Positions 12,866 to 54,956 of a DNA stretch of 64,000 bases are shown here, in pieces. Position 1 is the first letter of the stretch. Each line of letters starts with the position of its first letter. The position numbers and the translations under genes were made by a program. The notes beneath the pieces were generated by a model. It saw only the letters and a list, made by a program, of their open reading frames with translations. It ran no database searches and was not told the origin of the DNA. Source of the stretch: a virus (taxonomy: Duplodnaviria; Heunggongvirae; Uroviricota; Caudoviricetes); IMG/VR virus record IMGVR_UViG_3300037510_000012, positions 21,267-85,266 of that record. One strand, 5' to 3'.

Positions 12866-13429
12866 ATGCAAATTGTCGGTTTGAGCGGTTACGCAAGAGT
12901 CGGCAAGGATACGGCAGCCGAGGCTCTTTCGAGCCTCGGCTTTGTCCGTATTTCCTTCGCTGATAAGTTGCGAGACTTCCTGTATGAATTCAATCCAATT
13001 ATCGATGTTGAATACGAAATTGGCGGGGGTGCTGGAGTAAGGCTCCGTAGCATCATTGATTCATATGGATGGGATGGGTATAAGGAAACAATCTATTACA
13101 ATGAGATTAGAAGGAATCTTCAGGTTCTTGGAACAGAATGCGGTCGAAAGATTGTTAGCGACAACATTTGGGTAGATGCTTTGCTAGATGGTCTAAGTGA
13201 TGGCAAGTACGTCATTGCAGATGTTAGATTCCCAAATGAGGCTAATGGCATTCGTGACCGTGGTGGTAAGATTTACCGCATTGAACGTGATGGAATTGGC
13301 GCATTTAATGACCATCCATCAGAGGTGTCACTTGACCATTATGAATTCGACGGGTTTATCCATAACGATGGAACCCCAGCAGAATTTAAGCATAGTGTAA
13401 GGAGAAAGATTCTTGAGGGTAGGATTTGA
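12866..13429 (+). CDS. P-loop (deoxy)nucleoside monophosphate kinase-like
   Basis: GLSGYARVGKDT P-loop. Confidence 0.55.
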   Translation: MQIVGLSGYARVGKDTAAEALSSLGFVRISFADKLRDFLYEFNPIIDVEYEIGGGAGVRLRSIIDSYGWDGYKETIYYNEIRRNLQVLGTECGRKIVSDNIWVDALLDGLSDGKYVIADVRFPNEANGIRDRGGKIYRIERDGIGAFNDHPSEVSLDHYEFDGFIHNDGTPAEFKHSVRRKILEGRI

Positions 13430-13982
13430 TATCGATGGCGTAATGTACGATTTCGCTGAATCGCTTCGCCAATACATGAGGTACTTTGGTTATGACAAGA
13501 AGTATAAGATGTGTGAGGGTGAAGTCAGCGAATGGTACTTTTACCGTCATTGGGGCATGACAGACAGTGAGTTCGTAAACCACTGTCACAAGGGTGTGGA
13601 CGCAGGGTTCGTCTTTGCCCACGGAGGCACCCGTGACAATTCTTCTGACGCTGTGAGATTTGTGAAGGACCTAGGTCACTCGGTTCATATCATCACGGAC
13701 AGAAGTTTTGGTAGCACCCCTGAACGGTCCCACTTTGCCACTAGGCAGTGGCTCTATCTGAACGACATTCCGTATGATACGATTGACTTCTCTGCTGACA
13801 AGACGTGTCGAGAGACTGACATGTTCATTGAGGACAAGTTGGAGAACTATGATGCACTTGTAGCGGCGGGTGTAGACTGCTACCTTGTAAACAGGCCATG
13901 GAACATGGTTCCTGGAGATGACAGGAAGCGTATCAAGAGTATCCAAGAGTATGCTACAATTATTGGAAATCTTAGTGTTTGA
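13413..13982 (+). CDS. HAD-family 5'(3')-deoxyribonucleotidase/phosphatase
   Basis: FDIDGVMYDF matches the DxDG(V/T) HAD motif I; TTG start after TAAGGAGAAAG. Confidence 0.65.
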   Translation: MRVGFDIDGVMYDFAESLRQYMRYFGYDKKYKMCEGEVSEWYFYRHWGMTDSEFVNHCHKGVDAGFVFAHGGTRDNSSDAVRFVKDLGHSVHIITDRSFGSTPERSHFATRQWLYLNDIPYDTIDFSADKTCRETDMFIEDKLENYDALVAAGVDCYLVNRPWNMVPGDDRKRIKSIQEYATIIGNLSV

Positions 13983-17845: not shown

Positions 17846-17926
17846 AACGGCCAATGTGGATATAGTGAAGTGGTATAACGGGTGTTTTGGGAACATCTGA
17901 CGTCGGTTCGATTCCGGCTATCCGCA
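17846..17926 (+). tRNA. tRNA, atypical (long D region; anticodon possibly TGG)
   Basis: T-arm GTCGG-TTCGATT-CCGGC; acceptor GTGGATA/TATCCGC; anticodon arm GGTGT-TTTGGGA-ACATC. Confidence 0.4.
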
Positions 17927-25026: not shown

Positions 25027-25104
25027 GCCCCAGTATCGCCACTGGCTTCTAACCAGTCGTTAACAGCGTAATGGAGTATGCAGGTTCGAATCCTGTCTGG
25101 GGTA
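25027..25104 (+). tRNA. tRNA, atypical (possible TCT anticodon; D-arm unclear)
   Basis: Acceptor GCCCCAG/CTGGGGT 7/7; T GCAGG-TTCGAAT-CCTGT; internal hairpin ACTGG-CTTCTAA-CCAGT. Confidence 0.45.
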
Positions 25105-25441: not shown

Positions 25442-25490
25442 GAATAATATGGATGGTAGGATACTCCTAAGAAGGTTTAGGAGGATGAAA

Positions 25491-26051
25491 ATGCCTAAGA
25501 GAAAGTTTTTCTATGATACCGAGTTTCACGAAGATGGTAAAACTATTGATTTGATTTCAATTGCTATGGTTCGTGGAGACGGTAAGGAATATTATGCTGT
25601 ATCATCTGATGCGGATTACAAGCGGGTTTTTGAGAACAGTTGGTTGATGAATCATGTTATGAATACAATCGACCATGTTGTTGTTGAAGACCATCACGGT
25701 GGCGGATATACAATTATCCCAAAGGGTCCTTTCGTAAGAACCAGAGAACAAATCCGTGATGAAATCCTTGAATTCGTAATGGAAAGTCAGGATGAATTTA
25801 ACGACCCTCATGGTGAGGCAAAGGCTGAGTTGTGGGCATGGTATGCTGACTATGACCACGTAGCACTTTGTCAACTGTTTGGTAAGATGATTGACCTTCC
25901 AACAGGTTTCCCTATGTTTACTAGAGATTTGAGGCAGCATTGGGAGTATAAGGGATATCCTGAGCTTCCAAGACAAGACGATGGTGAACACAACGCACTT
26001 GACGATGCACGTCACAACCTGGTAATGTATAACTACATGGAAGGTCTGTGA
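25491..26051 (+). CDS. DEDDh 3'-5' exonuclease (RNase T/oligoribonuclease-like)
   Basis: Exo I FYDTEF; Exo III H..ALDDARHN; start 6 nt after TAGGAGG. Confidence 0.6.
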   Translation: MPKRKFFYDTEFHEDGKTIDLISIAMVRGDGKEYYAVSSDADYKRVFENSWLMNHVMNTIDHVVVEDHHGGGYTIIPKGPFVRTREQIRDEILEFVMESQDEFNDPHGEAKAELWAWYADYDHVALCQLFGKMIDLPTGFPMFTRDLRQHWEYKGYPELPRQDDGEHNALDDARHNLVMYNYMEGL

Positions 26052-26964: not shown

Positions 26965-27768
26965 ATGTTCGGTCGTCGTAAGGCTGCTTTCGTTCCCGAT
27001 ACCACCAAGCGTGTTCTTAAGACTGTCAAGGTTGTTAAGCGAGACCCTTCTACGGCTGCTGCGCCTGTTGACCTGATTAAGAAGGTTGGTGTTTCTTTCG
27101 AAAAGAAGGTTGAGTCTGCTGTTAATCTGAACAAGAATGTCAGTGGCCCTTCTCGCGGTGTTGTCTGGAATGTTATCGGTCTGCTTGATGAGTCGTACTC
27201 TATGGCTCCGTTCTTCAGTGATGGCACTGTTCAGGAGATTGTTGACCGTGTGCTTGCTTGGTCTGCCTCGGTTGATGCTGATGGCCTGGTGCCTTTCGGC
27301 GGATTTGCTGACAGCCACGTTTGGCACGGTGACGTTGACCTGACTAACGTTAATAACGTCGTTGCTACAAACGGCTGGTCGCCTTGGGGTGGTACCAACC
27401 TTGCTGACTCTCTTCAGGCTATCCTTGACATGGTTCGGGACATGGGAGATGCTTGGCAGGAGAACCCCATCCTTCTGTTCATTGTGACAGACGGTATGCC
27501 GTTCAATCGGGACCTTGTAAAGCAGCTTATTCAGGAACTTTCTCAGTACCCTGTCTTTATCAAGATTCTGCGGGTTGGCAATGACCCTGGTGCTAAGGCT
27601 TTCGTTGAGGACCTTGACAACATGGTTGGTGGTCGTCTGGTGGATAATGTTGAGGCTCCGGATGATGGTCTCCGTAAGGGAATGTCTGACGACAAGTTCA
27701 ATGCAGCGATGATTCACGACATGGACAAGTATGTCAACGATGCAACTGCGGTTGGCCTGCTTAGTTGA
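26965..27768 (+). CDS. vWA-domain protein (MIDAS DESYS)
   Basis: VIGLLDESYSM MIDAS motif; RBS ACAAGGAGAA. Confidence 0.7.
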   Translation: MFGRRKAAFVPDTTKRVLKTVKVVKRDPSTAAAPVDLIKKVGVSFEKKVESAVNLNKNVSGPSRGVVWNVIGLLDESYSMAPFFSDGTVQEIVDRVLAWSASVDADGLVPFGGFADSHVWHGDVDLTNVNNVVATNGWSPWGGTNLADSLQAILDMVRDMGDAWQENPILLFIVTDGMPFNRDLVKQLIQELSQYPVFIKILRVGNDPGAKAFVEDLDNMVGGRLVDNVEAPDDGLRKGMSDDKFNAAMIHDMDKYVNDATAVGLLS

Positions 27769-30500: not shown

Positions 30501-30779
30501 GGGGTAGCTTGGTTTCGACTTTGCTGGACGGGATATAAACGCAACCCTTCTTGGTCAAAGAAGTAAAACGGGCCAACCAAATAAATGCAAACTCTATGAA
30601 TGCATCTGCTTTCGCTCTAGCAGCGTAAAAGCCGGGTTTGTCGGGAACCTAGGAACAGAATCCCGACTAGTACAAAATGTGTAGATAATGTGTAAGACCC
30701 TTCAGTGTGATTGACAATGGTTGTAGAACGGTTATATGCTAGATAGTAAAGGACGCGGGTTCGACTCCCGCCTACTCCA
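30501..30779 (+). ncRNA. ssrA: tmRNA (ssrA) with tag reading frame ANSMNASAFALAA*
   Basis: 5' GGGGTAGCTTGGTTTCGAC...GGGATATAAACGCAACCC matches E. coli ssrA GGGGCTGATTCTGGATTCGACGGGATTTGCGAAACCC. 3' GGACGCGGGTTCGACTCCCGCCTACTCCA matches GGACGCGGGTTCAACTCCCGCCAGCTCCA. Acceptor has the G3-U70 Ala identity pair; tag frame runs GCA...GCT CTA GCA GCG TAA. Confidence 0.75.
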
Positions 30780-31561
30780 CACAGAAAGATATGGTAATGA
30801 GAGTAACAAATCTCTACATCTATGGTACTGTCGAGTACCTGCGTAGGCTTGAGGAAGACTACGTGTTCATGGGTAGACAAGTGAGACTTGAAGATGATAG
30901 GCTCATCGTGTTCGCGCTTCCCAGGAAGAAGCGAAAGAAGTCTCCCAGTAAGCAGCGCCGTAGGCGTTGACAGACAGGGTTGGAACCTGTTAAGGTATAA
31001 GTAGAAGGTCAGGCAGTCGGACAAGGCTTAGGCGAGTGAGAGTAGTTCAAGCGGTGGTAACTTAAATGCCCACTTAATGATGCTCAACAAATCGGTGGGA
31101 TGCGAGTGGACTAGTCCTGACCTTTTAAGCTTCAATCTGTGGATAACGAAAGGGGTCCGGCGTTCTGTGAACTGGCAGTCGGGTAGCCTGGCATGATACA
31201 ATAAACCTCTAGCGGGGTTAGTCACCCAAGAGTAAAGTTCATTGAGGGTGAGCAGATTGAAAACTAGGTTGCGAGAGGGACAACGGGTGTGCTAAGGTTA
31301 GGTACCGAATCAAGGCACCAAGGTAGATAAGGGGAGAACAGCAAAGGGTCTCCGTGTATCGCAACCAAGCTTTGCAGCAAGCAGGCCAAACGCTATAGAC
31401 AGGGATACAAGGTTCTGAAAAGATAACGCCCATTTGGCAGGGTAGAAAGTTATCACCTGATGCTATCCACGCTGCAACTATGGAGATGACCGGAAACTTC
31501 TCCATAAGCTTCCTTCGTACAAAGCTGTAGGAATAAAAACAAACACGAAGGGTATTAAAAT

Positions 31562-32446
31562 ATGTGGTACATTGGTTTCGCCAGTCTCTTTATTCTCGTC
31601 GGTCTGGTCGCTTTCGTAGTCGGTTTCATGACTAAGAATGACCCGAGCGTTCGAAAGGGGGCCTATGGTGTAACTGCCGCAATGGTTCTTCTGCTTGTGG
31701 TTGTCACTGCGTTTAATTCTGTGACTAAGGTTGATGCTCGTAACGTCGGTATTCAGACTGCTTTTGGTCGGTACCAGGGACAGCTTGACAATGGTCTTCA
31801 GATTATCGCACCTTGGTCTGAGCACGAGGATTTCTCGACGCAGATTCAGTACCTTGACCTTGATGGCGACAAGTGGGCTGATGGCGCTCCGGTCACGTTT
31901 TCTGGTGGTGGTCGTGGTGTTGTTTACGCTACTCCGCGTTGGTACATCAACAAGGAGGATGCTGGTCAGCTCTGGAAGAAGTACAAGACTCTTGACAACG
32001 TGAGTGACCGTCTTGTAAGGTCTTCTGTGAAGGACTCGTTCCGAGCCGTCATGACGGAGTACACCCCGAATGACGCTCGTACCAACGTTCGTGAGATTAC
32101 TCAGAAGGTCGAAGATGACCTTGCCCGTACGCTTGGTGATGATGGTATTAAGATTGACTCCATCAGCATCCGTGATATTCAGCTTGACGACCGTACTCAG
32201 GCTTCTCTCGACAAGATTGTTCAGGCGAACAACGACATTGAGCGAGCCAAGGCGGAGCAGCAGCGTGCTAAGATTGACGCTGAGACGCTGAAGATTAAGC
32301 AGAAGGGCGGTAACCTTACCGAGGGTGGTCTTACTGACAAGTGTCTCACGGTGATGGACAAGTGGGACGTCAAGAAGAATGGTAACCTTCCTGCGGGATT
32401 CTCCTGCAATGGTGTGGGTACTCCGTTCACTGTCACCAACAAGTGA
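31562..32446 (+). CDS. SPFH/band-7 (stomatin/prohibitin/HflK-like) membrane protein
   Basis: N-terminal TM helix; SPFH core; coiled-coil tail. Confidence 0.7.
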   Translation: MWYIGFASLFILVGLVAFVVGFMTKNDPSVRKGAYGVTAAMVLLLVVVTAFNSVTKVDARNVGIQTAFGRYQGQLDNGLQIIAPWSEHEDFSTQIQYLDLDGDKWADGAPVTFSGGGRGVVYATPRWYINKEDAGQLWKKYKTLDNVSDRLVRSSVKDSFRAVMTEYTPNDARTNVREITQKVEDDLARTLGDDGIKIDSISIRDIQLDDRTQASLDKIVQANNDIERAKAEQQRAKIDAETLKIKQKGGNLTEGGLTDKCLTVMDKWDVKKNGNLPAGFSCNGVGTPFTVTNK

Positions 32447-34666: not shown

Positions 34667-34756
34667 GGAAGTGTGGCTGAGTCCGGTTTAAGGCGCTTCA
34701 CTGCTAATGAAGTGGTTTCGTAAAGAGGCCCGCAGGTTCGAATCCTGTCACTTCCG
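34667..34756 (+). tRNA. tRNA-Ser(GCT), class II
   Basis: Acceptor GGAAGTG/CACTTCC 7/7; anticodon arm CTTCA-CTGCTAA-TGAAG; variable arm GGTTTCGTAAAGAGGCC; T GCAGG-TTCGAAT-CCTGT. Confidence 0.85.
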
Positions 34757-34770
34757 CTGGAGTTGATAAC

Positions 34771-34931: not shown

Positions 34932-35999
34932 ATGGTACACGTTTCGAAGATTTTCTCGCTCGATGCGTTGCAGAAGGATATCGATGCGGGATTGGTACGT
35001 TCACAGGTAAATGAGGATGGGACGCTCCGCATTTACAATTACACCGAAGAGGTTCAGTACAAGCGAATGTGGAATGACGTTACGCTGAATTGTCGTGGCC
35101 TTATTCTCGACAATTACATGCACGTTGTTGCTCGTCCATGGAAGAAGTTCTTCAATTTCGGTGAGCGTCCTCTTCTATTCAGCACTGACACTCCGGTTGA
35201 GGTGACTGACAAGAAGGATGGTTCATTGGGTATTCTTTATCGTCACCCAATGACCGGGGATTACCGAATTGCAACTCGTGGCTCTTTCTTGTCTGACCAG
35301 GCTATTCACGCTACAAAGGTCTGGGACAACAAGTACAGCCACATCGCACAGCCTTGGGATGGAGTTACATTCCTGTTTGAGATTGTGTACCCTGACAATC
35401 GCATTGTGCTGGATTACGGTGAGCTTGATGACCTAATCTTGCTGGGTGCCGTTCACAATCAGTATGGATGGTACTACGGTCCGAACGAGGCTGCTGGGAT
35501 GCTCAACTGGACTGGTCCTGTCACTGAGGTCTTTGAGTACCGGACCACGAACGACTGCTTCAAGGTGCACCGTTCAAATGCTGAGGGTCTGGTAATTCGG
35601 GCCGGTAGCGAGATGGTCAAGTTGAAGCAGGAGGACTACGTGGCTTTGCACAAGCTAGTCACAGGTCTGAACGAGCGTGCTGTATGGGAGCGCTTGAAGG
35701 CAGGCGAGACACGTGATAGTATCTGTGCATCGCTTCCCGATGAGTTCCACGGATTTGTTGACAAGGTTGCGGATGAGCTAGAGACAAAGTTCAACGAGAT
35801 TTACCACAGTTCCCACGTGGATTACTGTAAGGTGTTGAACATAATGCCTGGCAAATCAAGCATGAGTAAGGCAGACTGGCGTAAGATGTTCGCATCGCAC
35901 GCTGTTAAGATGCCTAACTACGACTTGATTTTCAACTACCTTGACAACCGTCCGGTACAGGAGTCTATTTGGAAAATGATTCGTCCTAAGGGCGAGTAA
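34932..35999 (+). CDS. ATP-dependent RNA ligase, T4 Rnl1-like
   Basis: Motif I KKDGSL (T4 Rnl1 is KEDGSL); motif III FEIVY; IV EGLVIR; V KLK. Confidence 0.7.
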   Translation: MVHVSKIFSLDALQKDIDAGLVRSQVNEDGTLRIYNYTEEVQYKRMWNDVTLNCRGLILDNYMHVVARPWKKFFNFGERPLLFSTDTPVEVTDKKDGSLGILYRHPMTGDYRIATRGSFLSDQAIHATKVWDNKYSHIAQPWDGVTFLFEIVYPDNRIVLDYGELDDLILLGAVHNQYGWYYGPNEAAGMLNWTGPVTEVFEYRTTNDCFKVHRSNAEGLVIRAGSEMVKLKQEDYVALHKLVTGLNERAVWERLKAGETRDSICASLPDEFHGFVDKVADELETKFNEIYHSSHVDYCKVLNIMPGKSSMSKADWRKMFASHAVKMPNYDLIFNYLDNRPVQESIWKMIRPKGE

Positions 36000-36038
36000 T
36001 TTTTCGGCGGGGTTCGCCCCGCCAAGCTTGGAGGAGAA

Positions 36039-36317
36039 ATGAAAAATCTGGATTATGAAAAAGTCATTGATGGATATAACGACCTTCGTGAAACATGCCT
36101 TGTAATTGCTAAGCTTAACGATGAGCTGATGGGTCCTGACAGATGGCTGAAGTTTGCCATCCAAGACTCGGATATCACGTTGATGTTTACAGAGCGAGGC
36201 ATCGTGTGCTATGGTAGTGCTTACACGACACAGACGATGGACAACGAACACTTCAGTTTCATGATTCCGTTTGAATATCTAGAGGAGTTTGAGGCAAATG
36301 CTAGAACTGGTGATTAA
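36039..36317 (+). CDS. hypothetical protein
   Basis: RBS GGAGGAGAAATG after a hairpin-AAGCTT. Confidence 0.5.
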   Translation: MKNLDYEKVIDGYNDLRETCLVIAKLNDELMGPDRWLKFAIQDSDITLMFTERGIVCYGSAYTTQTMDNEHFSFMIPFEYLEEFEANARTGD

Positions 36318-36717
36318 CCGGGGGATTCCTGGTAGTGGAAAGTCAACATATGCTCGTGAGTGGGTATTGAAGCCAGGAACCAGACGTGCTAGGGTTAATC
36401 GTGATGACATTCGAATGCAGCTCTATGGAGTTGAATTCGGTGTCCCGATTGAGGAGACTGTAGTAACGGCGGTTGAAGACCAGATGATTAACACCTTGCT
36501 TTCTGAGGGTGTCTCAGTCATCATTGATGACTGTAACATCAGTCAGCGATACATCAACAGGTTTACAAAGATGGGCGAGAAGCATGGCGCAGAGGTGAGA
36601 GTTAATCTCATCAACGTTGACCTTGCGACTGCTCTGGACCGGAATAGCAAGCGTGACCGTTTCGTTCCAACCCATGTAATTCAGGATATGTATAAGAGAC
36701 TTCAGGAGTCGCTGTAA
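36289..36717 (+). CDS. pnk: polynucleotide 5'-kinase (T4 Pnk kinase-domain-like)
   Basis: GIPGSGKSTYAREWV...VNRDD matches the T4 Pnk kinase domain (GCPGSGKSTWAREF...NRDD). Confidence 0.75.
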   Translation: MRQMLELVINRGIPGSGKSTYAREWVLKPGTRRARVNRDDIRMQLYGVEFGVPIEETVVTAVEDQMINTLLSEGVSVIIDDCNISQRYINRFTKMGEKHGAEVRVNLINVDLATALDRNSKRDRFVPTHVIQDMYKRLQESL

Positions 36718-36911
36718 TGTTTCTAGGAATTCTGGGCGGACTGCTAGTGACCTGGTTTCTCGCCGGGTTTTTCCTTGCAGGTGCTTGGGCCGGTATAGGA
36801 GGAGATAGATGGTATGACAGACTGTTTGGATGGTCTGTCAGCATTGTTTGTTTCCTTCTATGGTATTGGATTGTAGGCACCCACATCAATTGGGGAGGTT
36901 TGATTAAGTGA
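36717..36911 (+). CDS. small membrane protein
   Basis: Two TM helices. Confidence 0.45.
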   Translation: MFLGILGGLLVTWFLAGFFLAGAWAGIGGDRWYDRLFGWSVSIVCFLLWYWIVGTHINWGGLIK

Positions 36912-37129
36912 ACATTCCTGAGGCGGATTACTTTGATAACATTGAGGTAATGCCGCATGAAGAAGACTTCACTATGTGGAAGGTTGTTGGTGTCAGGGTT
37001 GACATTGACAATATCAAGATGACCACTCTTAAGGAGTACATCGCTAACAAGCCTCTTGCGGAAGCGTTCGTAAGATGGTACACTGATAAGTATTGGTCGG
37101 ACATGCTCGATGGTGCACAAGACTGTTGA
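36908..37129 (+). CDS. hypothetical protein
   Basis: ORF track. Confidence 0.5.
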   Translation: MNIPEADYFDNIEVMPHEEDFTMWKVVGVRVDIDNIKMTTLKEYIANKPLAEAFVRWYTDKYWSDMLDGAQDC

Positions 37130-37153
37130 GCAACTGCGGCTTCGGCCGCAAGC

Positions 37154-37183
37154 TTGACAACCACATCGGTTGTCTGTTAAGAT
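37154..37183 (+). promoter_or_regulatory. promoter TTGACA-N18-TAAGAT upstream of tRNA-Leu
   Basis: AAGCTTGACAACC ... TTAAGATAGAAT. Confidence 0.55.
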
Positions 37184-37199
37184 AGAATACATAACGCAA

Positions 37200-37283
37200 G
37201 CGGGTGTGGCGGAACTAGGCAGACGCGATAGGTTTAGGTCCTATTGTCCTTGTGGCGTGCAGGTTCGATTCCTGTCACCCGTA
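37200..37283 (+). tRNA. tRNA-Leu(TAG), class II
   Basis: Anticodon arm ATAGG-TTTAGGT-CCTAT; T GCAGG-TTCGATT-CCTGT; promoter TTGACA-N18-TAAGAT upstream. Confidence 0.85.
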
Positions 37284-37315
37284 CTTCAATCGTTGATACG
37301 AGGGAGTTAAATATA

Positions 37316-37489
37316 ATGCAGTTTAAGCGTGGAGATAAGGTTATGACTGGTGATGGCCATGAGGGTAAGGTCATTGCTACAGACGCACGTCGTGGCCTGG
37401 TTGCTGTGAAGGTCGAGAAGCCTGGTACAGTTGGTCGTAACAAGGGTGACGAGATTAGTTATCGAGAGTCCGAGTTGCGAAAGCGCTAA
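37316..37489 (+). CDS. small KOW/SH3-like protein (57 aa)
   Basis: ATG 8 nt after GAGGGAG; the track ORF 37244 begins inside a tRNA. Confidence 0.45.
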   Translation: MQFKRGDKVMTGDGHEGKVIATDARRGLVAVKVEKPGTVGRNKGDEISYRESELRKR

Positions 37490-37529
37490 AAAACAGGTGG
37501 GGTTCGCCCCACCAAGCTTAGGAGGTAAA

Positions 37530-37730
37530 ATGGCTAGGAAGGTCAAAAACGGTACTCCCGTAAGAGTGCATGACCCAAGAAACTTGAACGCCTCTTATAG
37601 GAACCAGCTTGGAATTATCAAGGATAGCACGAAACTAATTGGCGGGGTTTGGTCATATAAGGTCAAGCTAAACAGTGGTCGTGAAGCCTGGTTTGATGAG
37701 GGAGAGCTAAGAGTTCTAAAGAATACATGA
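37530..37730 (+). CDS. small SH3-like protein
   Basis: ATG after hairpin-AAGCTT-AGGAGG. Confidence 0.45.
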   Translation: MARKVKNGTPVRVHDPRNLNASYRNQLGIIKDSTKLIGGVWSYKVKLNSGREAWFDEGELRVLKNT

Positions 37731-37915
37731 AACTACCACATTACATTAGTAGATTGTCATGGCACCAGGGAGACCGGGTTATCGTGGCAGTTGGACAGTT
37801 CAAGGGCAAGCATGGTACAGTAACCATGAGAGCTGAAAAGGGAAACTATCTAGTCCTTCTCGATGGAGAGAAGCGACCAAGGAAGTTCCTCAAGGGAGCA
37901 CTTGACCCAGAGTAG
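37727..37915 (+). CDS. small KOW-like protein
   Basis: ORF track. Confidence 0.45.
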   Translation: MKLPHYISRLSWHQGDRVIVAVGQFKGKHGTVTMRAEKGNYLVLLDGEKRPRKFLKGALDPE

Positions 37916-37929
37916 AAAGATGGTATAAG

Positions 37930-38094
37930 ATGCCTAGAGAAGATTTGGCAGCCCCAGGGATGCCACCTAAGGCACTACATCCTGTAGACTGTGAAAAGGG
38001 TGGAAAGCATAGGCCAACCACCAGAGAAATGAAGCAGGAAAACGGACAACACTTGAAGTACAATTACTGTACTAAGTGTCGTAAGATTCCGTGA
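37930..38094 (+). CDS. small zinc-finger protein (54 aa)
   Basis: Translated by eye. Confidence 0.35.
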   Translation: MPREDLAAPGMPPKALHPVDCEKGGKHRPTTREMKQENGQHLKYNYCTKCRKIP

Positions 38095-38119
38095 AATACC
38101 GCCCCGTAAGGGGCATCAA

Positions 38120-38191
38120 GCCGGTGTAGCTCAGTGGGAGAGCGTCTGCCTTACAAGCAGAGGGTCGGGAGTTCAATTCTCTTCGCCGGTA
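38120..38191 (+). tRNA. tRNA-Val(TAC)
   Basis: D GCTCAGTGGGAGAGC; anticodon arm TCTGC-CTTACAA-GCAGA; T GGGAG-TTCAATT-CTCTT. Confidence 0.85.
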
Positions 38192-38308
38192 CGTTCAGAG
38201 GAATGACAGCGCTGGATTTCCTCAGCTTTGAAATTCTGGATGCATACAGAACGATAGGTGAATCGCAGAGGACGATTGGGGGCTGCGTTAAAAAACATCC
38301 CAAGGCTT

Positions 38309-38382
38309 GGCCGCGTAGCCCAATGGCAGGAGGCGACTCTCTCAAAAAGAGTACAGTGTGGGTTCGAATCCCACCGTGGCTA
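38309..38382 (+). tRNA. tRNA with anticodon CAA on a class-I (short variable arm) body
   Basis: Acceptor GGCCGCG/CGTGGCT; anticodon arm ACTCT-CTCAAAA-AGAGT; T GTGGG-TTCGAAT-CCCAC; CAA reads the Leu codon UUG but there is no long variable arm. Confidence 0.55.
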
Positions 38383-38408
38383 CTTCCCGAAACAAAAAGG
38401 AGAAAATA

Positions 38409-38621
38409 ATGCAGTTTACCCAGGTTGATGAAGACGCTTACAATGTTCTCGTGAATCTTAACACGATTTCTCGAATCGGTGAAGCGTTCGATGCTCTTGT
38501 TGCTTCTGGCAATGCTGACGAGCGGGATGAGGCTCTTCGTAACTCCTTCAATGGTGCTTATGCGAAGTTGTCTGAGCCTGAGACTGATGTGGTTGACGAG
38601 TCCGATTCCGGACTTGAGTGA
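38409..38621 (+). CDS. hypothetical acidic protein
   Basis: RBS AAAAGGAGAAAATAATG. Confidence 0.5.
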   Translation: MQFTQVDEDAYNVLVNLNTISRIGEAFDALVASGNADERDEALRNSFNGAYAKLSEPETDVVDESDSGLE

Positions 38622-38625
38622 CCGT

Positions 38626-38649
38626 GCGGCCCTTCGGGGCCGCTAGCTT
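38626..38649 (+). repeat. hairpin-TAGCTT element (same stem-loop, variant tail)
   Basis: GCGGCCCTTCGGGGCCGCTAGCTTTTT. Confidence 0.7.
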
Positions 38650-38668
38650 TTTGAGAGAGGGTAGGATA

Positions 38669-38896
38669 ATGTCCAAATGGATTCAGCCTGGTAACAGGAT
38701 TATGGACAAGGCGTATTTGCGCCATGGTCGCGTGACATACACAGGTGAGCAGCTTGTACTTGCATTGCTGCTACACACGAAGGGTAAGACCCGAAGAGGT
38801 CAGAATGAGCTAGAGCAGGTTGCTAAGATGCTTGATGACCCTAATATTAATAGAAATCGAAAGAGAACACCCCGTAGGAAGCCTAAGGCAGCCTGA
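38669..38896 (+). CDS. hypothetical basic protein
   Basis: After the hairpin-TAGCTT; RBS GAGAGGGTAGG. Confidence 0.5.
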   Translation: MSKWIQPGNRIMDKAYLRHGRVTYTGEQLVLALLLHTKGKTRRGQNELEQVAKMLDDPNINRNRKRTPRRKPKAA

Positions 38897-38924
38897 CGGG
38901 GTTTTCCCGTTTAAGGAGATAAAC

Positions 38925-39278
38925 GTGGCACAAATCATTATCAATCGCTCTGAATCCCGTTGTGGTAGTTGTGGACAAGGAGCTTTCATGGAAGAAACGG
39001 GACATTATACAATTGCAGGATACAAGAACAATGGCCTACCTGGTTGCGGTGAGGCTTGGGATGGTGTAAGCTCTGACTATCTCAACATCCCCGCGATGCT
39101 TGCGGCTGGTAGTGAAGGCTACTGGTTCGCTGAGAATTTGCGTGGGCTTCCTGTTTATGATGCAGCACATGCAGAGCCGATTGGAGTTTATGGTGGCCCG
39201 TCAAGAAAGAATGCGGAAGTGTCAGCGTTGCGGCGTCAGGCGGATATCTCCGTTTCTCAAGACAACGACGTGCGGTAA
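38925..39278 (+). CDS. hypothetical protein
   Basis: GTG start 5 nt after AAGGAG. Confidence 0.5.
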   Translation: MAQIIINRSESRCGSCGQGAFMEETGHYTIAGYKNNGLPGCGEAWDGVSSDYLNIPAMLAAGSEGYWFAENLRGLPVYDAAHAEPIGVYGGPSRKNAEVSALRRQADISVSQDNDVR

Positions 39279-39298
39279 CTGTCAAGCACTAGAAATTA

Positions 39299-39481
39299 TT
39301 GAAGGGATTCGTAATGGCGGATTGGTACAAGGACCACAATGTGAGTCCGGACGCAGTGAGTGAAGAAGAGTATCGTGATTGGCTTGCTGTGAACGTGGGG
39401 GTTGAAGAGGCAGACCGTTTCTGGTATGGTATTGACGATGCAGAGTTCCTAGGGGATGATGATTATGGCCGGGCTTCCTAA
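39299..39481 (+). CDS. hypothetical acidic protein
   Basis: ORF track. Confidence 0.4.
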   Translation: MKGFVMADWYKDHNVSPDAVSEEEYRDWLAVNVGVEEADRFWYGIDDAEFLGDDDYGRAS

Positions 39482-39698
39482 GAAGATGTACTATGTGCTT
39501 ATCAAGCCTGGTGGTAAGCCTCTAAGATATGGTAGAAAGGGTGGTGGCTCATACACCCTTGAGAATAACGCTCGTGGTCAGTATGAACACTTGAAGTCTC
39601 AGGGTTGCAAGGTTGAGCTTTACACTACCGAAGTTGAGTGGAACATGCTAGAGTCCAATGTAAACGAACCAATTGAAGGGCAGGAGCCTCTATGGTAA
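39456..39698 (+). CDS. hypothetical protein
   Basis: ORF track. Confidence 0.45.
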   Translation: MMIMAGLPKKMYYVLIKPGGKPLRYGRKGGGSYTLENNARGQYEHLKSQGCKVELYTTEVEWNMLESNVNEPIEGQEPLW

Positions 39699-40168
39699 CG
39701 TATGTCAAGGGTGATGCAACTAAGCCTCAGGGTGATGGCAGGAAGATTATCGCCCATGTTTGTAATGACGAAGGTGGTTGGGGCGCGGGATTTGTCCTTG
39801 CTGTGGACAAGTTGTCTTCGCAGCCACGAATCAGTTATCGAATGGCTTATGACCACTGGACTAAGGAAGAGGGGTTGACTTTCATCCCACTTGGATGGAC
39901 TCAGCTTGATTATGTTGGCAATAACATTTACGTTGCCAATATGGTTGCTCAGCATCGTACAATCCGTAGTGTTGAGAAGCCAATTTGTTACAAGAGCCTT
40001 GAGGTATGCCTGGAAAAGGTTGCTAAGAGTGCAATTGCTCTTGATGCTACAGTACACATGCCTCGCATCGGATGTGGACTTGCAGGTGGCGACTGGAATG
40101 TGGTAGAGTCAATCATCAACCGAACCCTAACGCTGAGGGATGTTCATGTCACAGTCTACGACCTTTGA
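39692..40168 (+). CDS. macro-domain protein (ADP-ribose / Appr-1''-p processing)
   Basis: VKGDATKP...IIAHVCNDEGGWGAGF and C-terminal RIGCGLAGG resemble MacroD/YmdB GDIT...NAAN..GGGGV and ISTGVYG. Confidence 0.7.
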   Translation: MVTYVKGDATKPQGDGRKIIAHVCNDEGGWGAGFVLAVDKLSSQPRISYRMAYDHWTKEEGLTFIPLGWTQLDYVGNNIYVANMVAQHRTIRSVEKPICYKSLEVCLEKVAKSAIALDATVHMPRIGCGLAGGDWNVVESIINRTLTLRDVHVTVYDL

Positions 40169-40379
40169 GCAGATTCCATTGTTTGACGTTGACGAAATTC
40201 CATGGGGATATTGCTATGACTGCTATCTCAAGGTGGAATTTGACATCAACCACAGACTTCCATGGTGTTCAAATTGCAGCAAGGAAGTTCATTCATATGA
40301 TTGGACAACGACTGCAAAGTTCAAGCCAATTCGTATCTCACCATCACAAGTGTTGAAGTCTAACACTGTACCCTGGTAA
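40140..40379 (+). CDS. zinc-finger protein
   Basis: CYDC...CSNC. Confidence 0.45.
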   Translation: MFMSQSTTFEQIPLFDVDEIPWGYCYDCYLKVEFDINHRLPWCSNCSKEVHSYDWTTTAKFKPIRISPSQVLKSNTVPW

Positions 40380-40444
40380 TCAGGGCGGGGTTCATAAAGA
40401 GCCCCGCAAGCTTCATTGGTTCGAAAACAAAGGAGATATAACCA

Positions 40445-42370
40445 ATGCGACCTAATGCAAATGTGGCTGAACGCAAGGGTGACCTTGGTGGCCAGAAGAT
40501 TGCAATGACGTTCGACCAGAATAGTCTTGCACATCTTATGTCGGTTATGACTGACCTGTATTCTGACCCTGAGCTTGCGGTAATTCGTGAGTACAGCACA
40601 AATGCGTGGGATTCCCACAAGGCTGCTGGGGTTACTCGTCCTATTGAGGTTACGCTCCCTAATGGTCTTTCTCCTTACTTCAAGGTCAAGGATTACGGCC
40701 TTGGTATGGATATTGACGACATTGAGAATATCTATTCTCAGTATGGTGCGTCAACGAAGCGTGACACTGATGACCAGGTTGGTATGCTTGGTCTTGGTTG
40801 TAAGTCTGCGCTGTCTTATACTTCCCAATTCACGCTTATTGCTGTGAAGGATGGAATGAAGTATAATGTAGCTATTAGCCGTACAGAGAATGGCTCCGGA
40901 GTCATGGAGGTTGTTCTTGCAACCGAGACTGACGAAGAGAATGGCGTTGAAATTGTCATTCCGGCTAAGCGTGGTAACAACTTTGCACACAAGGCAAATG
41001 AATTCTACCAGTTCTGGGAGAAGGGCAGTGTGCTTATTGATGGTGAAGAGCCTAAGTACATTTCTGGCCGGGAGGTCAAGAATGGAATTATGATGGTCTC
41101 TGACCTTTCCAAGGATTATCTTATCATGGGTAACGTCGGTTATCCTCTTGATGAGCGTCACCAGATTGGTGAGCGCAATTACTATTCCCGCTATGGCGTA
41201 GTGGCGCGGGTTGACATTGGAGACGTGAACTTTACGCCTTCTCGTGAATCCCTGCATTACACTAAGCGTACTGAGGACACAATCAATCGAATTCGGACTG
41301 AATTCAAGGCGGGTCTCGATGGTATTGTTGAGCGAGACGTTACGGCATGTGCAACTCAGGAAGAGGCTCTTACGACTTACCTTGAGTGGTACAATCTTCT
41401 TGGTGGTGGTTACAGCCGTTACAAGTTCCCTGAGGTTGAGTACCGGGGTAAGAAGGTTCCGATGAACATTCAGCACCCGTTCCTCTCCTACAAGGTGAAC
41501 CACACGCGGTATGCAGTTGATTCACACAACTGGATTGATATTAAGACTGCTCGTGATACCCCCATCATTTATGGGTTCGCTGGTGAAAAGATTAGCGGCC
41601 ATCAGCGTGAGAAGATGCGTACTTGGCGCACGCTCAATGGATTCACTTCTAGCAACATCCTGATTTGTGATGAACTGCCGGATGTTCTTGAAGAGGATTG
41701 GATTCCTGAGAGCAAGGTATATTCTTGGGAGGATGTTAAGACTGCTAAGGTTCCGGGACAGAAGTCTGGTCGTCCTGCTGCTGTTTACGATGTTTACCTT
41801 CCTGGTTCTACTCGTATCAAGCAGGTAAAGGCTGACGAATTCCCTGACGACGTTGAGATTGCCCTTGTGGCTCCGCGAGATGTTCCTAATTTCCGGACCG
41901 TTAAGGCTTTCCTTGAGGAGAAGACGGATGTTATGATTGTTCGACTTCAGCAGTACCGATGGGAAAAGTTCCGCAGGACATATCCTGACGCTAAGGACCT
42001 TACGTCATTCTTCAAGGAGATGTACGAGAGCGCAGTAAAGGGCCTTACCGATGAGGACAAGTTCAACCTTGGCCTTGACTATCGTGTCCGCAATCTGCTA
42101 CAGTCTCTTAATGAGACGGAGATTGAAGACCCGGAACTTGTAAAGGCTATCATTGCTGCAAAGCAGGTCAAGCCTAGTGATACTCTCAAGCGATATGAGG
42201 AAATGAAGGAAACCTATGGTACCTTTAACTTCGCTCGATATGGTCAGGCTGAAATTGACCGGGTTAACCCGCTTGAGCAGTACGTTCTTCTGAAGTACCA
42301 TTACTACGACATGGATGTTACGCACGCTACGGTTTATATCAATGCAGCGTACCACGCTTTCGTAAAGTGA
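40445..42370 (+). CDS. Hsp90/MORC-like GHKL ATPase
   Basis: Bergerat motifs: REYSTNAWDS (Hsp90 ELISNASDA), YGLGMD (DxGxGM), GMLGLG (GxxGxG). Confidence 0.7.
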   Translation: MRPNANVAERKGDLGGQKIAMTFDQNSLAHLMSVMTDLYSDPELAVIREYSTNAWDSHKAAGVTRPIEVTLPNGLSPYFKVKDYGLGMDIDDIENIYSQYGASTKRDTDDQVGMLGLGCKSALSYTSQFTLIAVKDGMKYNVAISRTENGSGVMEVVLATETDEENGVEIVIPAKRGNNFAHKANEFYQFWEKGSVLIDGEEPKYISGREVKNGIMMVSDLSKDYLIMGNVGYPLDERHQIGERNYYSRYGVVARVDIGDVNFTPSRESLHYTKRTEDTINRIRTEFKAGLDGIVERDVTACATQEEALTTYLEWYNLLGGGYSRYKFPEVEYRGKKVPMNIQHPFLSYKVNHTRYAVDSHNWIDIKTARDTPIIYGFAGEKISGHQREKMRTWRTLNGFTSSNILICDELPDVLEEDWIPESKVYSWEDVKTAKVPGQKSGRPAAVYDVYLPGSTRIKQVKADEFPDDVEIALVAPRDVPNFRTVKAFLEEKTDVMIVRLQQYRWEKFRRTYPDAKDLTSFFKEMYESAVKGLTDEDKFNLGLDYRVRNLLQSLNETEIEDPELVKAIIAAKQVKPSDTLKRYEEMKETYGTFNFARYGQAEIDRVNPLEQYVLLKYHYYDMDVTHATVYINAAYHAFVK

Positions 42371-42430
42371 TTGGTCGGCCCCGAAAGGGGCCAAGCTCCG
42401 GAAATGTCTAATATTAGGAGATAAAACAAA

Positions 42431-43438
42431 ATGAAGTATAATCTCGTTCAGGTTGAAGATGGCGGAGAGGCAAACCTTACCGTTGTCCACGATGGAGAGA
42501 TGTATGTGGCCACTGACACTCACCCTAATTTCGAGCGAATTGTCGCGGGTGTTGTCGCCGGAGATGAAAGTGTAGTTGAACTGTTTGATGTTCAGAAGAC
42601 TGCACAGAAGCGATTCGACAGGCTTTCCGAGCGTGTCACTGTTTCAAATGGTAAGGTCTACCTTGATGGTGAAGAGGTTGACAATGCACTTACCCAGCAG
42701 GTTATCAACTTTGTGAATAACGGAGTTGAGGACTTTAAGCCTCTCGTTGCTTTCTTCGAGAAGGTTGAGACTAACCCGAATTCTCACAGCCGAGTTCAGC
42801 TTTACGCTTGGCTTCGTGACCGTAACATTACCCTTACTGAGGATGGAAACTTCATCGCTTACAAGGGTGTGAAGGTCGAGAATGGCGAGTATTTCAGCAT
42901 TTCCACTGGAAAGGCAATTTCCAATGGTGTTGAGTACAATGGTGCAATTCCTAACCCGCTCGGTGCGATTGTTGAGATGCCTCGCTCTGAGGTTCAGCAC
43001 GACCCTAGCGTTGGGTGCCACACCGGTCTCCATGCTGGTACGTGGAATTACGCCAGTGGTTTTGCGCGGGGTGCGGTTCTGACCGTAGAGATTAATCCGC
43101 GTGACGTTGTTTCCGTTCCTACGGACTGTGATGCGCAGAAGTTGCGTGTCTGTCGCTACGTGGTTAAGGACGTGACTGAGACTGAGCTTGACACTCCGGT
43201 CTACAGCACTTACCCTGACCTTGATGGTTACGAGGATGAGGAGTACGACGACTACGGCTACGATTATGACGAGCCGGATGTTGACACAGACGAGCCTGTT
43301 GAGGTAGAGTCTGAGGACAAGGAAGGAACCGAGTCCACCGGTGTTGTAACTGCGGATGTTTCTAGCGCAATTACGTGGCGTCCTGTGGAGTCCACTTGGG
43401 CTCCGGAAGACCCCGATGCACCTTGGAACCGAGTCTAA
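42431..43438 (+). CDS. hypothetical protein with a long acidic C-terminal tail
   Basis: ORF track; follows the GHKL ATPase gene. Confidence 0.55.
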   Translation: MKYNLVQVEDGGEANLTVVHDGEMYVATDTHPNFERIVAGVVAGDESVVELFDVQKTAQKRFDRLSERVTVSNGKVYLDGEEVDNALTQQVINFVNNGVEDFKPLVAFFEKVETNPNSHSRVQLYAWLRDRNITLTEDGNFIAYKGVKVENGEYFSISTGKAISNGVEYNGAIPNPLGAIVEMPRSEVQHDPSVGCHTGLHAGTWNYASGFARGAVLTVEINPRDVVSVPTDCDAQKLRVCRYVVKDVTETELDTPVYSTYPDLDGYEDEEYDDYGYDYDEPDVDTDEPVEVESEDKEGTESTGVVTADVSSAITWRPVESTWAPEDPDAPWNRV

Positions 43439-43479
43439 TCGGTTCGCCCCTTCGGGGGCAAGCTTACTAAGGAGGAACA

Positions 43480-43638
43480 ATGACGGTAGCGGAATTGATT
43501 GCGAAGTTGCAGACGTATCAGAACCAGGATGCTATGGTTAAGGTCTTGGTTGACGACGGATGTGGTTGTTGTTCGAGTGGGGGAACTTACGAGGACATTG
43601 ATGTTGATGTAGTTGATGGAGAAATCCGAATCTCGTGA
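43480..43638 (+). CDS. small hypothetical protein (52 aa)
   Basis: AGGAGGAACAATG after a hairpin-AAGCTT. Confidence 0.4.
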   Translation: MTVAELIAKLQTYQNQDAMVKVLVDDGCGCCSSGGTYEDIDVDVVDGEIRIS

Positions 43639-43685
43639 TACACTAGCCTCTCCGGAGGCAAGCTTCCTAACGAAAGGAGATATTA

Positions 43686-44462
43686 ATGTCCAAGATTATG
43701 ATTCTGGGCGACGTTCACGGTGAGACAAAGTGGCTGGTGAACATGATTAACAAGGCCAGTCGAATGGGCGTCAAGAAGATTCTCCAGGTTGGAGATTTCG
43801 GAATCTGGACTCATGAGGCTGAGGGACACCGGTTCCTTGACCGCGCAAATGAGGAGCTTCGTAAGCATGGCATTAAGCTCTATTTCGTTGGCGGCAATCA
43901 TGAGAACTGGGACCACCTGAATTGGCACGAGAAGAATGGTGCTAAGGACTGGAATGGTCACACATTTATTCGGTCTCACATTCTTTACACTGGTCGGGTG
44001 AATCGCTGGACCTGGGGTGAGAAGGGTGAGGAGAAGGTCTTTCAGGCTGTTGGTGGTGCCTTTTCAATTGACCGGCGTCGGCGGGTTGTTGGAAAGACTC
44101 TCTGGCTTGATGAGGAGATTCCTGACCGGGTTGTTTATGGTCTGGAGAAGGCTGGTCGGAAGTGTGATTACCTTTTCACGCATGATGGTCCTAGCTGTCT
44201 TCCATTCGCAAATCTGAAGCCTGATATCGACTCTGATATGCACCGGCAGAAGATGGACCGAATTGGGCGGGCTACTCGGCCTAATCTTTGGTTCCACGGT
44301 CACTATCACAAGTGGATGGAGTACAGCTTTATGCACCAGGAGGGTTATTCCTTCGTGTATGGGCTTGACCGGGACTATCAGTTCTACTCTTACGCCATTC
44401 TTGATACTGCATCTGGTGACGTTGAGACTGCAACTGGTAAGATTATCGAGCACGGAAACTGA
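43686..44462 (+). CDS. calcineurin-like metallophosphoesterase (lambda-PPase/Pnkp-phosphatase type)
   Basis: GDVHG; GDFG; GGNHE motifs. Confidence 0.75.
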   Translation: MSKIMILGDVHGETKWLVNMINKASRMGVKKILQVGDFGIWTHEAEGHRFLDRANEELRKHGIKLYFVGGNHENWDHLNWHEKNGAKDWNGHTFIRSHILYTGRVNRWTWGEKGEEKVFQAVGGAFSIDRRRRVVGKTLWLDEEIPDRVVYGLEKAGRKCDYLFTHDGPSCLPFANLKPDIDSDMHRQKMDRIGRATRPNLWFHGHYHKWMEYSFMHQEGYSFVYGLDRDYQFYSYAILDTASGDVETATGKIIEHGN

Positions 44463-54232: not shown

Positions 54233-54457
54233 ATGTCCATTGAGAGATGGGAAAATGAAGGAGGATTTATCCAGATGACTCATTCATATTTTGACAGAAT
54301 GGGTTTTGAGGAAACACACGAAGGCAGTCAGACAGACTGTCCAACCAAGCAGTGTCGTAAGGAACGCGCCTACTACCGCAGGATTCCAGCGATGGACCCG
54401 TGGCCTGATGGTTCCGGGCCATACGGCACCGACCCATGGATGCAGGAGGGTATCTAA
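54233..54457 (+). CDS. hypothetical protein
   Basis: Internal ATG after GGAGG; follows the terminator at 54184-54214. Confidence 0.5.
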   Translation: MSIERWENEGGFIQMTHSYFDRMGFEETHEGSQTDCPTKQCRKERAYYRRIPAMDPWPDGSGPYGTDPWMQEGI

Positions 54458-54461
54458 ACAA

Positions 54462-54956
54462 ATGCACGTCGTACCAAAATTTGAAGGTGACCACTTCTTC
54501 CTGTCTAACTTTTACGAGGCTCCCATACGTTTTGTGATGGGTGATGAGATGGTGGTCATGGCTACTGGGGAGCACGCTTTCCAGGCTGCCAAGGGCAACG
54601 CCATCCTTGACAAGGCAGAGAAGATGAGATACGTTCTTTCTGTTGCCGATGCCCCAACACCTGCCAAGGCAAAGTACCTTGGTCGTTCAGTCAAGATAGA
54701 CCTTGACTGGTGGGAACGCATCAAGGTAGACTGTATGCGCGAAATTGTATTCCAGAAGTTTTTGCAGAACCCTGAGCTGAGAGTTAAGCTCTTGAATACA
54801 GGTGATGCTATGCTTGTGGAAGGAAATACCTGGGATGATAAATTCTGGGGGCGAGTAGATGGCAAGGGCTATAATAAGCTTGGTGTCATTTTGATGGAAG
54901 TGCGCGGATACTGGTATTGGCAGACACGTAGAAACAATCCGGAGATGGGGTCATGA
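54462..54956 (+). CDS. NADAR/YbiA-family protein (ADP-ribose N-glycosidase superfamily)
   Basis: FFLSNFY...EHAFQAAK and WGRVDGKGYNKLGVILMEVR match E. coli YbiA FSNFA...EHYFQAQK and WGDGGHGKGKNRLGYLLMELR. Confidence 0.75.
   Translation: MHVVPKFEGDHFFLSNFYEAPIRFVMGDEMVVMATGEHAFQAAKGNAILDKAEKMRYVLSVADAPTPAKAKYLGRSVKIDLDWWERIKVDCMREIVFQKFLQNPELRVKLLNTGDAMLVEGNTWDDKFWGRVDGKGYNKLGVILMEVRGYWYWQTRRNNPEMGS

Follow-up and report, generated by a model that had tools for sequence, protein, structure and literature searches.

The stretch of DNA considered here, referred to as the window, comprises 64,000 nucleotides of a Caudoviricetes virus (IMG/VR record IMGVR_UViG_3300037510_000012, positions 21,267 to 85,266). 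It carries an array of 31 tRNA genes and a transfer-messenger RNA (tmRNA) gene, located by ARAGORN at 17856–50144. Embedded in this array, as the preliminary description of the sequence had noted, are three genes with the makings of an RNA-repair set: those for an RNA ligase, a polynucleotide kinase, and a calcineurin-like metallophosphoesterase (MPE). Every gene of the 9.5-kb region that spans them lies on the + strand (Table 1). The region shares 82–84% DNA identity with the Streptomyces phages Francob, Gilson, Emma1919, Kenrey, and others; Kenrey is classified in the Stanwilliamsviridae, subfamily Loccivirinae, genus Gilsonvirus, and the window phage is Gilsonvirus-like. The tRNA-Ser(gct) gene that precedes the ligase in the window also does so in Francob, Kenrey, and the more distant phage BillNye. 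GenBank already labels the homologues in these relatives as RNA ligase, polynucleotide kinase, rIIA-like, rIIB-like, and (metallo)phosphoesterase. The gene set is of a known and already annotated kind, and the concept of phage RNA repair is already in the literature; the new detail is a natural kinase-only polynucleotide kinase (Pnk), paired with a phosphodiesterase resembling the debranching enzyme Dbr1 in at least two lineages.

Profile searches, which the preliminary description had proposed for the three genes, recovered the expected Pfam families: RNA_lig_T4_1 for the ligase (1.8e-13), AAA_33 for the kinase (1.3e-19), and Metallophos for the MPE (6.5e-11). The ligase further matches PHROG 562 over its full length (1e-73, amino acids [aa] 14–352) and, as its top solved match by sequence, the crystal structures of T4 Rnl1 (5e-15). 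The Rnl1-type motif I by which the gene had been recognized, KKDGSL, occupies aa 94–99 and places K94 in register with T4 K99. For the remainder of the active site, the reference was the set of residues essential in T4 Rnl1, which includes R54, K75, F77, and K119 besides motifs I and III–V. When the protein was aligned by MAFFT with RnlA from the T4 genome, D96, G97, E150 (motif III), E218/G219 (motif IV), and K230/K232 (motif V) were all found conserved, as were the Rnl1-specific R55, K72, and F74; the preliminary description had made its reading hinge on motifs III–V, and these are present in full. At the position of T4 K119 the window ligase has R116, a conservative substitution shared without exception within its own clade, and the catalytic residues are invariant across 41 homologues. 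An AlphaFold (AF2) model with a predicted local distance difference test score of 92, in which helices span aa 234–349, retrieves T4 Rnl1 first in Foldseek (1e-17, ~381 aligned columns, 2C5U), with the ligase domain of fungal Trl1 next. Against TIGR02308 the protein scores 74, below the equivalog cut-off of 242, so it is a member of the family rather than a T4 orthologue. Its ratio of nonsynonymous to synonymous substitution rates (dN/dS) against five relatives is 0.08–0.13. That this is a genuine T4 Rnl1 homologue with an intact predicted active site is well supported.

The kinase gene follows in the same direction, with 290 bases between the two. Its resemblance to T4 Pnk, first noticed in the P-loop and NRDD block, stands: the protein carries the P-loop GIPGSGKST, the NRDD block, and an RNSKR block, matches the T4 Pnk kinase domain (4.5e-12) and Capnocytophaga Pnkp1 (2.5e-10), and presents K18, S19, D39, R42, R118, and R122 as counterparts of T4 K15, S16, D35, R38, R122, and R126. 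Two corrections are in order. The probable start is the ATG at 36298, which yields the N terminus MLELV seen in relatives, and the likeness to T4 Pnk does not extend to its phosphatase half. The protein ends exactly at the kinase/linker boundary of T4 Pnkp, and the HAD phosphatase domain (DxDxT, PF25109) is absent. BillNye (Wilnyevirus, same subfamily; 290 aa) and Peebs (Samistivirus, same family; 301 aa) encode complete Pnkp with an intact DxDxT motif, and so do Rhodococcus phage NiceHouse, with 301 aa, and mycobacteriophage DirkDirk, with 306 aa. In the window and five Gilson-like loci, the protein is a kinase alone, of 139–142 aa, and two small ORFs, one of which is hydrophobic, come after its gene. 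When the Pnkp phosphatase domains of T4, Peebs, NiceHouse, and DirkDirk were used as tblastn queries, no Pnkp-type phosphatase was matched (all E > 0.1) in the window or in Francob 1–49000 and 80121–128799, the parts of that genome outside the window-homologous span. Among Streptomyces phage records, 133 have the kinase and 114 the phosphatase domain; in 19, the kinase shares at least 60% identity with that of the window. With dN/dS of 0.13–0.19 against five relatives and dS near 1, the kinase-only gene is not decaying. By these comparisons, the Gilson-like lineage appears to have lost the Pnk HAD phosphatase through a clean truncation at the domain boundary and, as a result, removal of 2′,3′-cyclic phosphate or 3′-phosphate is left without an assigned enzyme in the window lineage. 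The small PHROG 20718 protein encoded between ligase and kinase occurs in all Loccivirinae loci examined, BillNye included, with dN/dS of 0.05–0.17, and could act as an accessory to the two enzymes.

Intact residues, co-directional genes, purifying selection, and the tRNA array all speak for the ligase and kinase as a functional couple, the part of the repair-set proposal that holds. We consider it fairly probable that the two form a T4-like pair for the repair of infection-damaged RNA, most likely tRNA, and that the Pnk 3′-phosphatase was lost within the lineage. In such a route, the Pnk-type kinase would phosphorylate 5′-OH RNA ends, and the Rnl1-family ligase would then join 5′-PO4 to 3′-OH through ligase–AMP and AppRNA intermediates. 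The likely substrate would be tRNA that host ribonucleases cleave in the anticodon loop in the course of infection, and repair would complement the phage's own tRNA supply. The homology, active sites, domain loss, synteny, and purifying selection are seen directly in the genes compared; from them we infer the RNA or tRNA substrate, a counter-defence role, and any part that the MPE may take in repair. Phage RNA-repair sets have been described as comprising tRNAs, Rnl1/Rnl2/RtcB ligases, Pnk, HAD phosphatases, TROVE proteins, and occasionally calcineurin-like phosphatases (Iyer et al., PMC7824862), and phage tRNAs have been argued to counter host tRNases (PMC10264068). The 3′ healer could be the Dbr1-like MPE, another phage hydrolase, or a host enzyme; within the window, the MPE is the best candidate, if a tentative one.

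Table 1. Genes and other features of the window, beginning with the ligase–kinase–MPE region
Feature	Position	Strand	Remarks
tRNA-Ser(gct)	34667..34757	+	Ends 175 bases 5′ of the ligase
Rnl1-family ATP-dependent RNA ligase, 355 aa	34932..35999	+	Adenylyltransferase domain and all-helical C-terminal domain
Conserved 92-aa protein, PHROG 20718	36039..36317	+	Between ligase and kinase; overlaps the kinase start
Stand-alone polynucleotide 5′-kinase domain	36298..36717	+	T4 Pnk-type; open reading frame (ORF) listed from TTG at 36289
Two small overlapping ORFs (64 aa, hydrophobic; 73 aa)	36717..37129	+	Where relatives hold the Pnkp phosphatase domain
tRNA-Leu(tag)	37200..37284	+	Starts 480 bases 3′ of the kinase; closes the ligase–kinase block
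Macro domain protein, BT1257/SCO6735 (ALC1-like) class	39692..40168	+	BT1257, 2.5e-41; Streptomyces SCO6735, 7.7e-39
rIIA-like	40445–42370	+	Between kinase and MPE
rIIB-like	42431–43438	+	Between kinase and MPE
Dbr1-like binuclear MPE, 258 aa	43686..44462	+	Full metal-binding set; candidate 3′-end healer
Deoxynucleoside monophosphate (dNMP) kinase	12866–13429		End overlapped by the HAD gene at 13413
NT5C-type HAD nucleotidase	13413..13982	+	NT5C family, 8.8e-7
Ro60 homologue	22048–23664		TROVE domain, 3e-37; Ro60 vWA domain, 5e-56
Rv2179c-like 3′-5′ exoribonuclease	25449–26051		Within tRNA array
vWA-TerF-like protein	26965–27768		Within tRNA array
tmRNA	30501–30780		Within tRNA array; tag ANSMNASAFALAA
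SPFH/band-7 protein	31562–32446		Within tRNA array
NADAR domain protein	54291–54956		5e-25
Rnl2-type RNA ligase nucleotidyltransferase domain, 216 aa	56077..56727	+	PF09414, 2.3e-17

The MPE had been assigned to the calcineurin-like enzymes by its motifs GDVHG, GDFG, and GGNHE, and its metal site is complete. The binuclear metal/phosphate-site residues D9, H11, D37, N71, H72, H166, H204, H206, and H208 vary little or not at all, and all but the first two are invariant in 44 homologues. A single-sequence search of the PDB returned no match, and profile and fold searches were needed to place the protein. By three methods, the top structural relative is Dbr1, the RNA lariat debranching 2′-5′ phosphodiesterase (Entamoeba 4PEF/4PEH), at an identity of just 16–19% and in one-directional searches; Aq_1956, CWF19L1, Lmo2642, purple acid phosphatases, and Mre11 rank behind it. 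Dbr1 has a cysteine in its first metal motif, plus a C-terminal domain. The window MPE has an aspartate in motif I (GDVHG) and lacks the C-terminal domain. An assignment to the lambda-phosphatase type, to which the MPE domain of Clostridium thermocellum Pnkp (CthPnkp) belongs, was ruled out by the GDFG motif, which stands in place of the GDxxDRG of the lambda-phosphatase/PPP branch, by the match to lambda phosphatase 1G5B (E 0.62, vs. 1.7e-7 for Dbr1), and by the unfused state of the protein, domains of that type being usually fused between kinase and ligase. With dN/dS of 0.04–0.09, the MPE shows the strongest conservation in the block. We regard it as a candidate, active-looking Dbr1-like phosphodiesterase. 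Its family comprises ~2,150 representative clusters at E ≤ 1e-30 and, as far as the searches show, is uncharacterized. Long proteins among the best 150 of these representatives are tandem copies or bear a LAGLIDADG domain. Two representatives, P0330 and P0362, split into two matched stretches, and the internal LAGLIDADG domain of P0330 probably marks an intein insertion.

The gene neighbourhoods of the MPE provide a further view of its affiliations. Throughout the Stanwilliamsviridae compared (window, Francob, Kenrey, Peebs, and BillNye), the MPE always comes after rIIA–rIIB. In BillNye, the macro–rIIA–rIIB–MPE block lies 11 kb upstream of tRNA-Ser–ligase–Pnkp, the reverse of the order in the window, and it follows that the MPE travels together with rII, separately from the repair genes. 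For a broader sample, 80 IMG/VR loci encoding the MPE family were grouped at 60% identity into 38 clusters, here treated as lineages. The most conserved neighbours are again rIIA and rIIB, which co-directionally adjoin the MPE in 10 of the 38, seven times as rIIA–rIIB–MPE and three times as MPE–rIIA–rIIB. Loci with this pairing are L014, L035, L038, L042, L044, L045, L046, L047, L067, and L091. Its occurrence in both orders suggests selection for adjacency and offers a possible functional lead on rII. Nine lineages have a kinase, HAD_PNKP, or Rnl1 gene no more than 10 kb from the MPE, and in three independent metagenomic lineages such a gene is immediately adjacent; in 15, there are three or more tRNAs inside 5 kb. 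Locus L071 has a complete Pnkp and then the MPE, and L093 the MPE and then a stand-alone HAD_PNKP. Locus L079 (1862–5217) presents, in order, an HNH gene, the MPE, a 162-aa kinase-only ORF, a 316-aa ORF, Rnl1, and a dNMP kinase, and the start of the kinase-only ORF overlaps the stop of the MPE gene; this is a second, independent kinase-only Pnk beside the MPE family. Elsewhere, L046 and L051 have Ro60, SPFH, MPE, rIIA, and rIIB consecutively, and in DirkDirk the genes for the MPE, a band-7 protein, and Ro all fall inside 5 kb. In a Pseudonocardia prophage, the MPE occurs as a lone accessory gene, in opposite orientation. Complete Pnkp coexists with the MPE in Peebs, BillNye, NiceHouse, DirkDirk, and L071, such that the MPE usually accompanies, and does not replace, the HAD phosphatase. 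In sum, the family shares accessory neighbourhoods with RNA-repair and RNA-quality-control genes, and its tightest partner is rII.

Two groups of observations weigh against the account given above, one touching the ligase–kinase pair and the other the MPE as its partner. As to the pair, Rnl1 homologues are also annotated for tail-fibre attachment, the second function of T4 gp63, and many database relatives bear the label "RNA ligase and tail fiber protein attachment catalyst"; T4 Pnk, moreover, phosphorylates DNA too. The ligase might then be a tail-fibre attachment factor and the kinase act on DNA ends or nucleotides. But catalytic residues as invariant as those of the ligase would be superfluous for a non-catalytic assembly role, the ligase–kinase linkage recurs in unrelated phages (T4, Peebs, BillNye, L042, L079, and L092), and both genes reside among the tRNAs, a long way from the structural genes; we regard such a role as very unlikely. 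The other objection is chemical. A kinase-only enzyme alone cannot prepare the 2′,3′-cyclic phosphate ends left by most anticodon nucleases, and for this reason the pathway may be incomplete, host-dependent, or meant for another substrate. In a reduced version of it, the kinase and ligase would handle 3′-OH breaks only, or would borrow a 3′-phosphatase from the host or from elsewhere in the phage, with no dedicated partner. The clean domain deletion is consistent with this, as are the tblastn results for the window and the Francob flanks and the absence of 2H, HD, or Pnkp-like HAD domains among the window ORFs scanned against Pfam; Francob also encodes two additional MPEs outside the window-homologous span (genes 48 and 242) that, along with its hydrolases, could serve. 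Yet a kinase without 3′ healing would be of little use, and this one is conserved; a reduced pathway strikes us as rather improbable. The gene 242 MPE was also considered as a gain specific to the kinase-only lineage, which is not supported, since its family occurs in 1,654 phage records.

Conceivably, the MPE itself opens the 2′,3′-cyclic phosphate, removes the 3′-phosphate, and so replaces the lost HAD domain, making kinase, MPE, and ligase a complete heal-and-seal set. Since kinase and ligase have been kept under purifying selection after the HAD loss, some 3′-phosphatase would be needed; the MPE has a complete active site, it clusters with a kinase-only Pnk and Rnl1 in L079, where the MPE and kinase frames overlap, and it adjoins Pnkp in L071 and HAD_PNKP in L093. 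There is precedent in the three-domain CthPnkp (PMC1920235) and in the gp102 fusion protein of Staphylococcus phage phiIPLA-C1C, and calcineurin-like phosphatases occur in a few phage repair sets (PMC7824862). However, the window MPE is in another branch than these precedents: hhalign relates it to the gp102 MPE at 54% probability over the N-terminal motifs only, and the gp102 domain matches lambda phosphatase where that of the window matches Dbr1. It is set 7 kb from the kinase, with rIIA and rIIB in between, and follows rII upon rearrangement in BillNye; across lineages, rIIA/B neighbours (10/38) outnumber adjoining Pnkp parts (3/38). No fusion to a kinase, HAD, or ligase domain was found in the best 150 of the ~2,150 family representatives, and the two further MPEs of Francob also count against this one as the dedicated partner. 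Most lineages have both the MPE and a complete Pnkp, so the MPE did not originate as a substitute and probably has a role of its own. A three-enzyme pathway is accordingly doubtful, and the more specific proposal that a Dbr1-like MPE heals RNA 3′ ends after HAD loss, in the window lineage and independently in the L079 phage, is unlikely. It is quite possible, if short of probable, that the MPE is instead a member of an rIIA–rIIB-linked module or a lone counter-defence phosphodiesterase, whose nearness to the ligase and kinase reflects a shared accessory region; a Dbr1-like enzyme could, for example, hydrolyse 2′-5′ or cyclic phosphodiester signals, or branched nucleic acids. The co-directional rII adjacency in both orders, the BillNye arrangement, the oppositely oriented MPE of the Pseudonocardia prophage, and the exceptionally low dN/dS argue for it. 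On the other hand, the rII link predicts no chemistry, the family departs from Dbr1 in the aspartate of motif I and the missing C-terminal domain, three lineages set the MPE against Pnkp parts, and 15 have it among tRNAs.

Three outlying genes had been tentatively drawn into the repair set. The macro domain at 39692 is present as described, but its supposed link to tRNA splicing through ADP-ribose-1″-phosphate (Appr-1″-p) found no support: the protein is of the SCO6735 type, and no Tpt1/KptA was seen among the 38 window ORFs scanned against Pfam. Poa1p-type Appr-1″-p entries match it over aa 2–36 alone (3e-6). SCO6735 reportedly removes ADP-ribosylation from proteins and, in thymidine-linked form, from DNA, and the macro domain protein is probably an ADP-ribosyl hydrolase. 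A NADAR protein is encoded downstream of the MPE; the two represent distinct ADP-ribosyl-hydrolase families, consistent with the countering of ADP-ribosylating host defences. Given the SCO6735 affinity, the NADAR protein, and the lack of a visible KptA, counter-ADP-ribosylation is likelier than the processing of a tRNA-splicing by-product. The gene at 13413 does encode a HAD fold, although its candidacy as a Pnkp-like phosphatase was likewise dropped: it is of the NT5C family, its gene overlaps that of the dNMP kinase, and it shows no resemblance to the phosphatase domains of Pnkp. The nucleotidase type and overlapping dNMP kinase gene place it in nucleotide metabolism. The ligase-fold protein at 56077, noted for its KVDGTN motif, is confirmed as an Rnl2-type nucleotidyltransferase domain, with EGVIA and KFKLK also present and the Rnl2 C-terminal domain absent; its gene is ~20 kb from the kinase, unlinked to it, and conserved as Francob gene 211. 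Pfam scans of the same 38 ORFs gave no 2H, HD, or KptA domains. As a separate observation, NiceHouse gene 199 (L007 10257–10790; 177 aa), labelled "RNA ligase", contains twice the H-x-T-L motif that typifies 2H (LigT-like) cyclic phosphodiesterases and would thus add a different sort of 3′-end processor to a related repair region; an equivalent was not found in the window.

The ligase–kinase pair sits in the accessory region of the phage, along with the tRNAs, the tmRNA, and a Ro60 homologue. The exoribonuclease, vWA-TerF-like protein, tmRNA, and SPFH protein of the array, together with the repair genes, constitute an RNA and translation maintenance island. Farther upstream is the Ro60 homologue, followed by a 315-aa ORF (23717–24664) that matches no family. 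A search for a Y RNA near the Ro60 gene gave none by Rfam, the sole match being a D-armless tRNA-like element at 25027–25104 (Rfam tRNA, 34.2 bits) that ARAGORN missed. It starts 4 bases past tRNA-Arg(gcg) and, relative to the Ro60 gene, lies 1.4 kb downstream. The acceptor stem, anticodon arm, and T arm are present, the D arm is nearly absent, and the variable region has 19 bases; the element might be either a degenerate tRNA or a partner RNA of Ro with a tRNA-like form. In a promoter and terminator scan, the borders of transcription units were not clearly resolved.

The current reading of phage tRNA arrays and RNA-repair enzymes is that they counter tRNA-cleaving bacterial immunity, and the window adds an actinophage case in which a phage tRNA supply sits beside ligase and kinase repair. 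It also offers a natural experiment: close phages that differ only in the 3′-phosphatase half of Pnk provide a genetic handle on the 3′ healer, if any. The recurrent adjacency of the MPE to rIIA–rIIB, Ro60/SPFH, and Pnkp parts is a testable lead on an abundant family. Should the MPE prove to heal 3′ ends, the two known solutions, T4 Pnkp with its HAD domain and CthPnkp with its lambda-phosphatase-like one, would be joined by an unrelated third, and the rII genes would be connected to RNA-damage defences through the conserved MPE adjacency.

The closest functional parallel is T4, where Rnl1 (gp63, rnlA) and Pnkp (pseT) together repair tRNA-Lys and so counter the PrrC anticodon nuclease. The window ligase is of the same family as T4 Rnl1 (29% identity), with all essential residues and the same two-domain fold; the kinase, too, belongs to the same family as that of T4 (~32% identity), with the same catalytic residues, and in both phages the two genes are a few kb or less apart. 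Unlike the window protein, T4 Pnkp has a C-terminal HAD 3′-phosphatase (D165, D167, and others); the window phage, furthermore, has an actinomycete host and keeps its genes inside a 31-tRNA array. We know of no cognate anticodon nuclease for it. BillNye and Peebs share the modules of tRNA-Ser, Rnl1, small ORFs, Pnk, and macro–rIIA–rIIB–MPE, at identities to the window of 49–61% for the ligase, 49–58% for the kinase, and 57–72% for the MPE. They differ in their complete kinase–phosphatase Pnk and, in BillNye, in the placing of the rII–MPE block before the ligase–Pnkp block. The bacterial Pnkp1–Rnl–Hen1 system of Capnocytophaga has a homologous kinase domain and the same heal-and-seal logic (PMC4411300), but its ligase is of another family, and the window set has no Hen1 methyltransferase. 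CthPnkp, which acts in Pnkp–Hen1 repair, combines kinase, MPE, and ligase, the same three domain superfamilies as the proposed set. A phage counterpart of this trifunctional architecture is the 778-aa gp102 (L094 3501–5837), annotated as "RNA ligase" only, in which a Pnk-type kinase, Metallophos, and RNA_lig_T4_1 are fused. PHROG 8238, with a layout like that of the gp102-type fusion, matches both the kinase (8.7e-14) and the ligase (9.3e-14) of the window. The MPE domains of CthPnkp and gp102 are lambda-phosphatase-like, with GDxxDRG, and that of gp102 has 1G5B as its best match (2e-5), whereas the window MPE is a separate protein. Three-domain repair logic thus has a real precedent in phages, and the window MPE, by its motifs and predicted fold, would be a different kind of enzyme.

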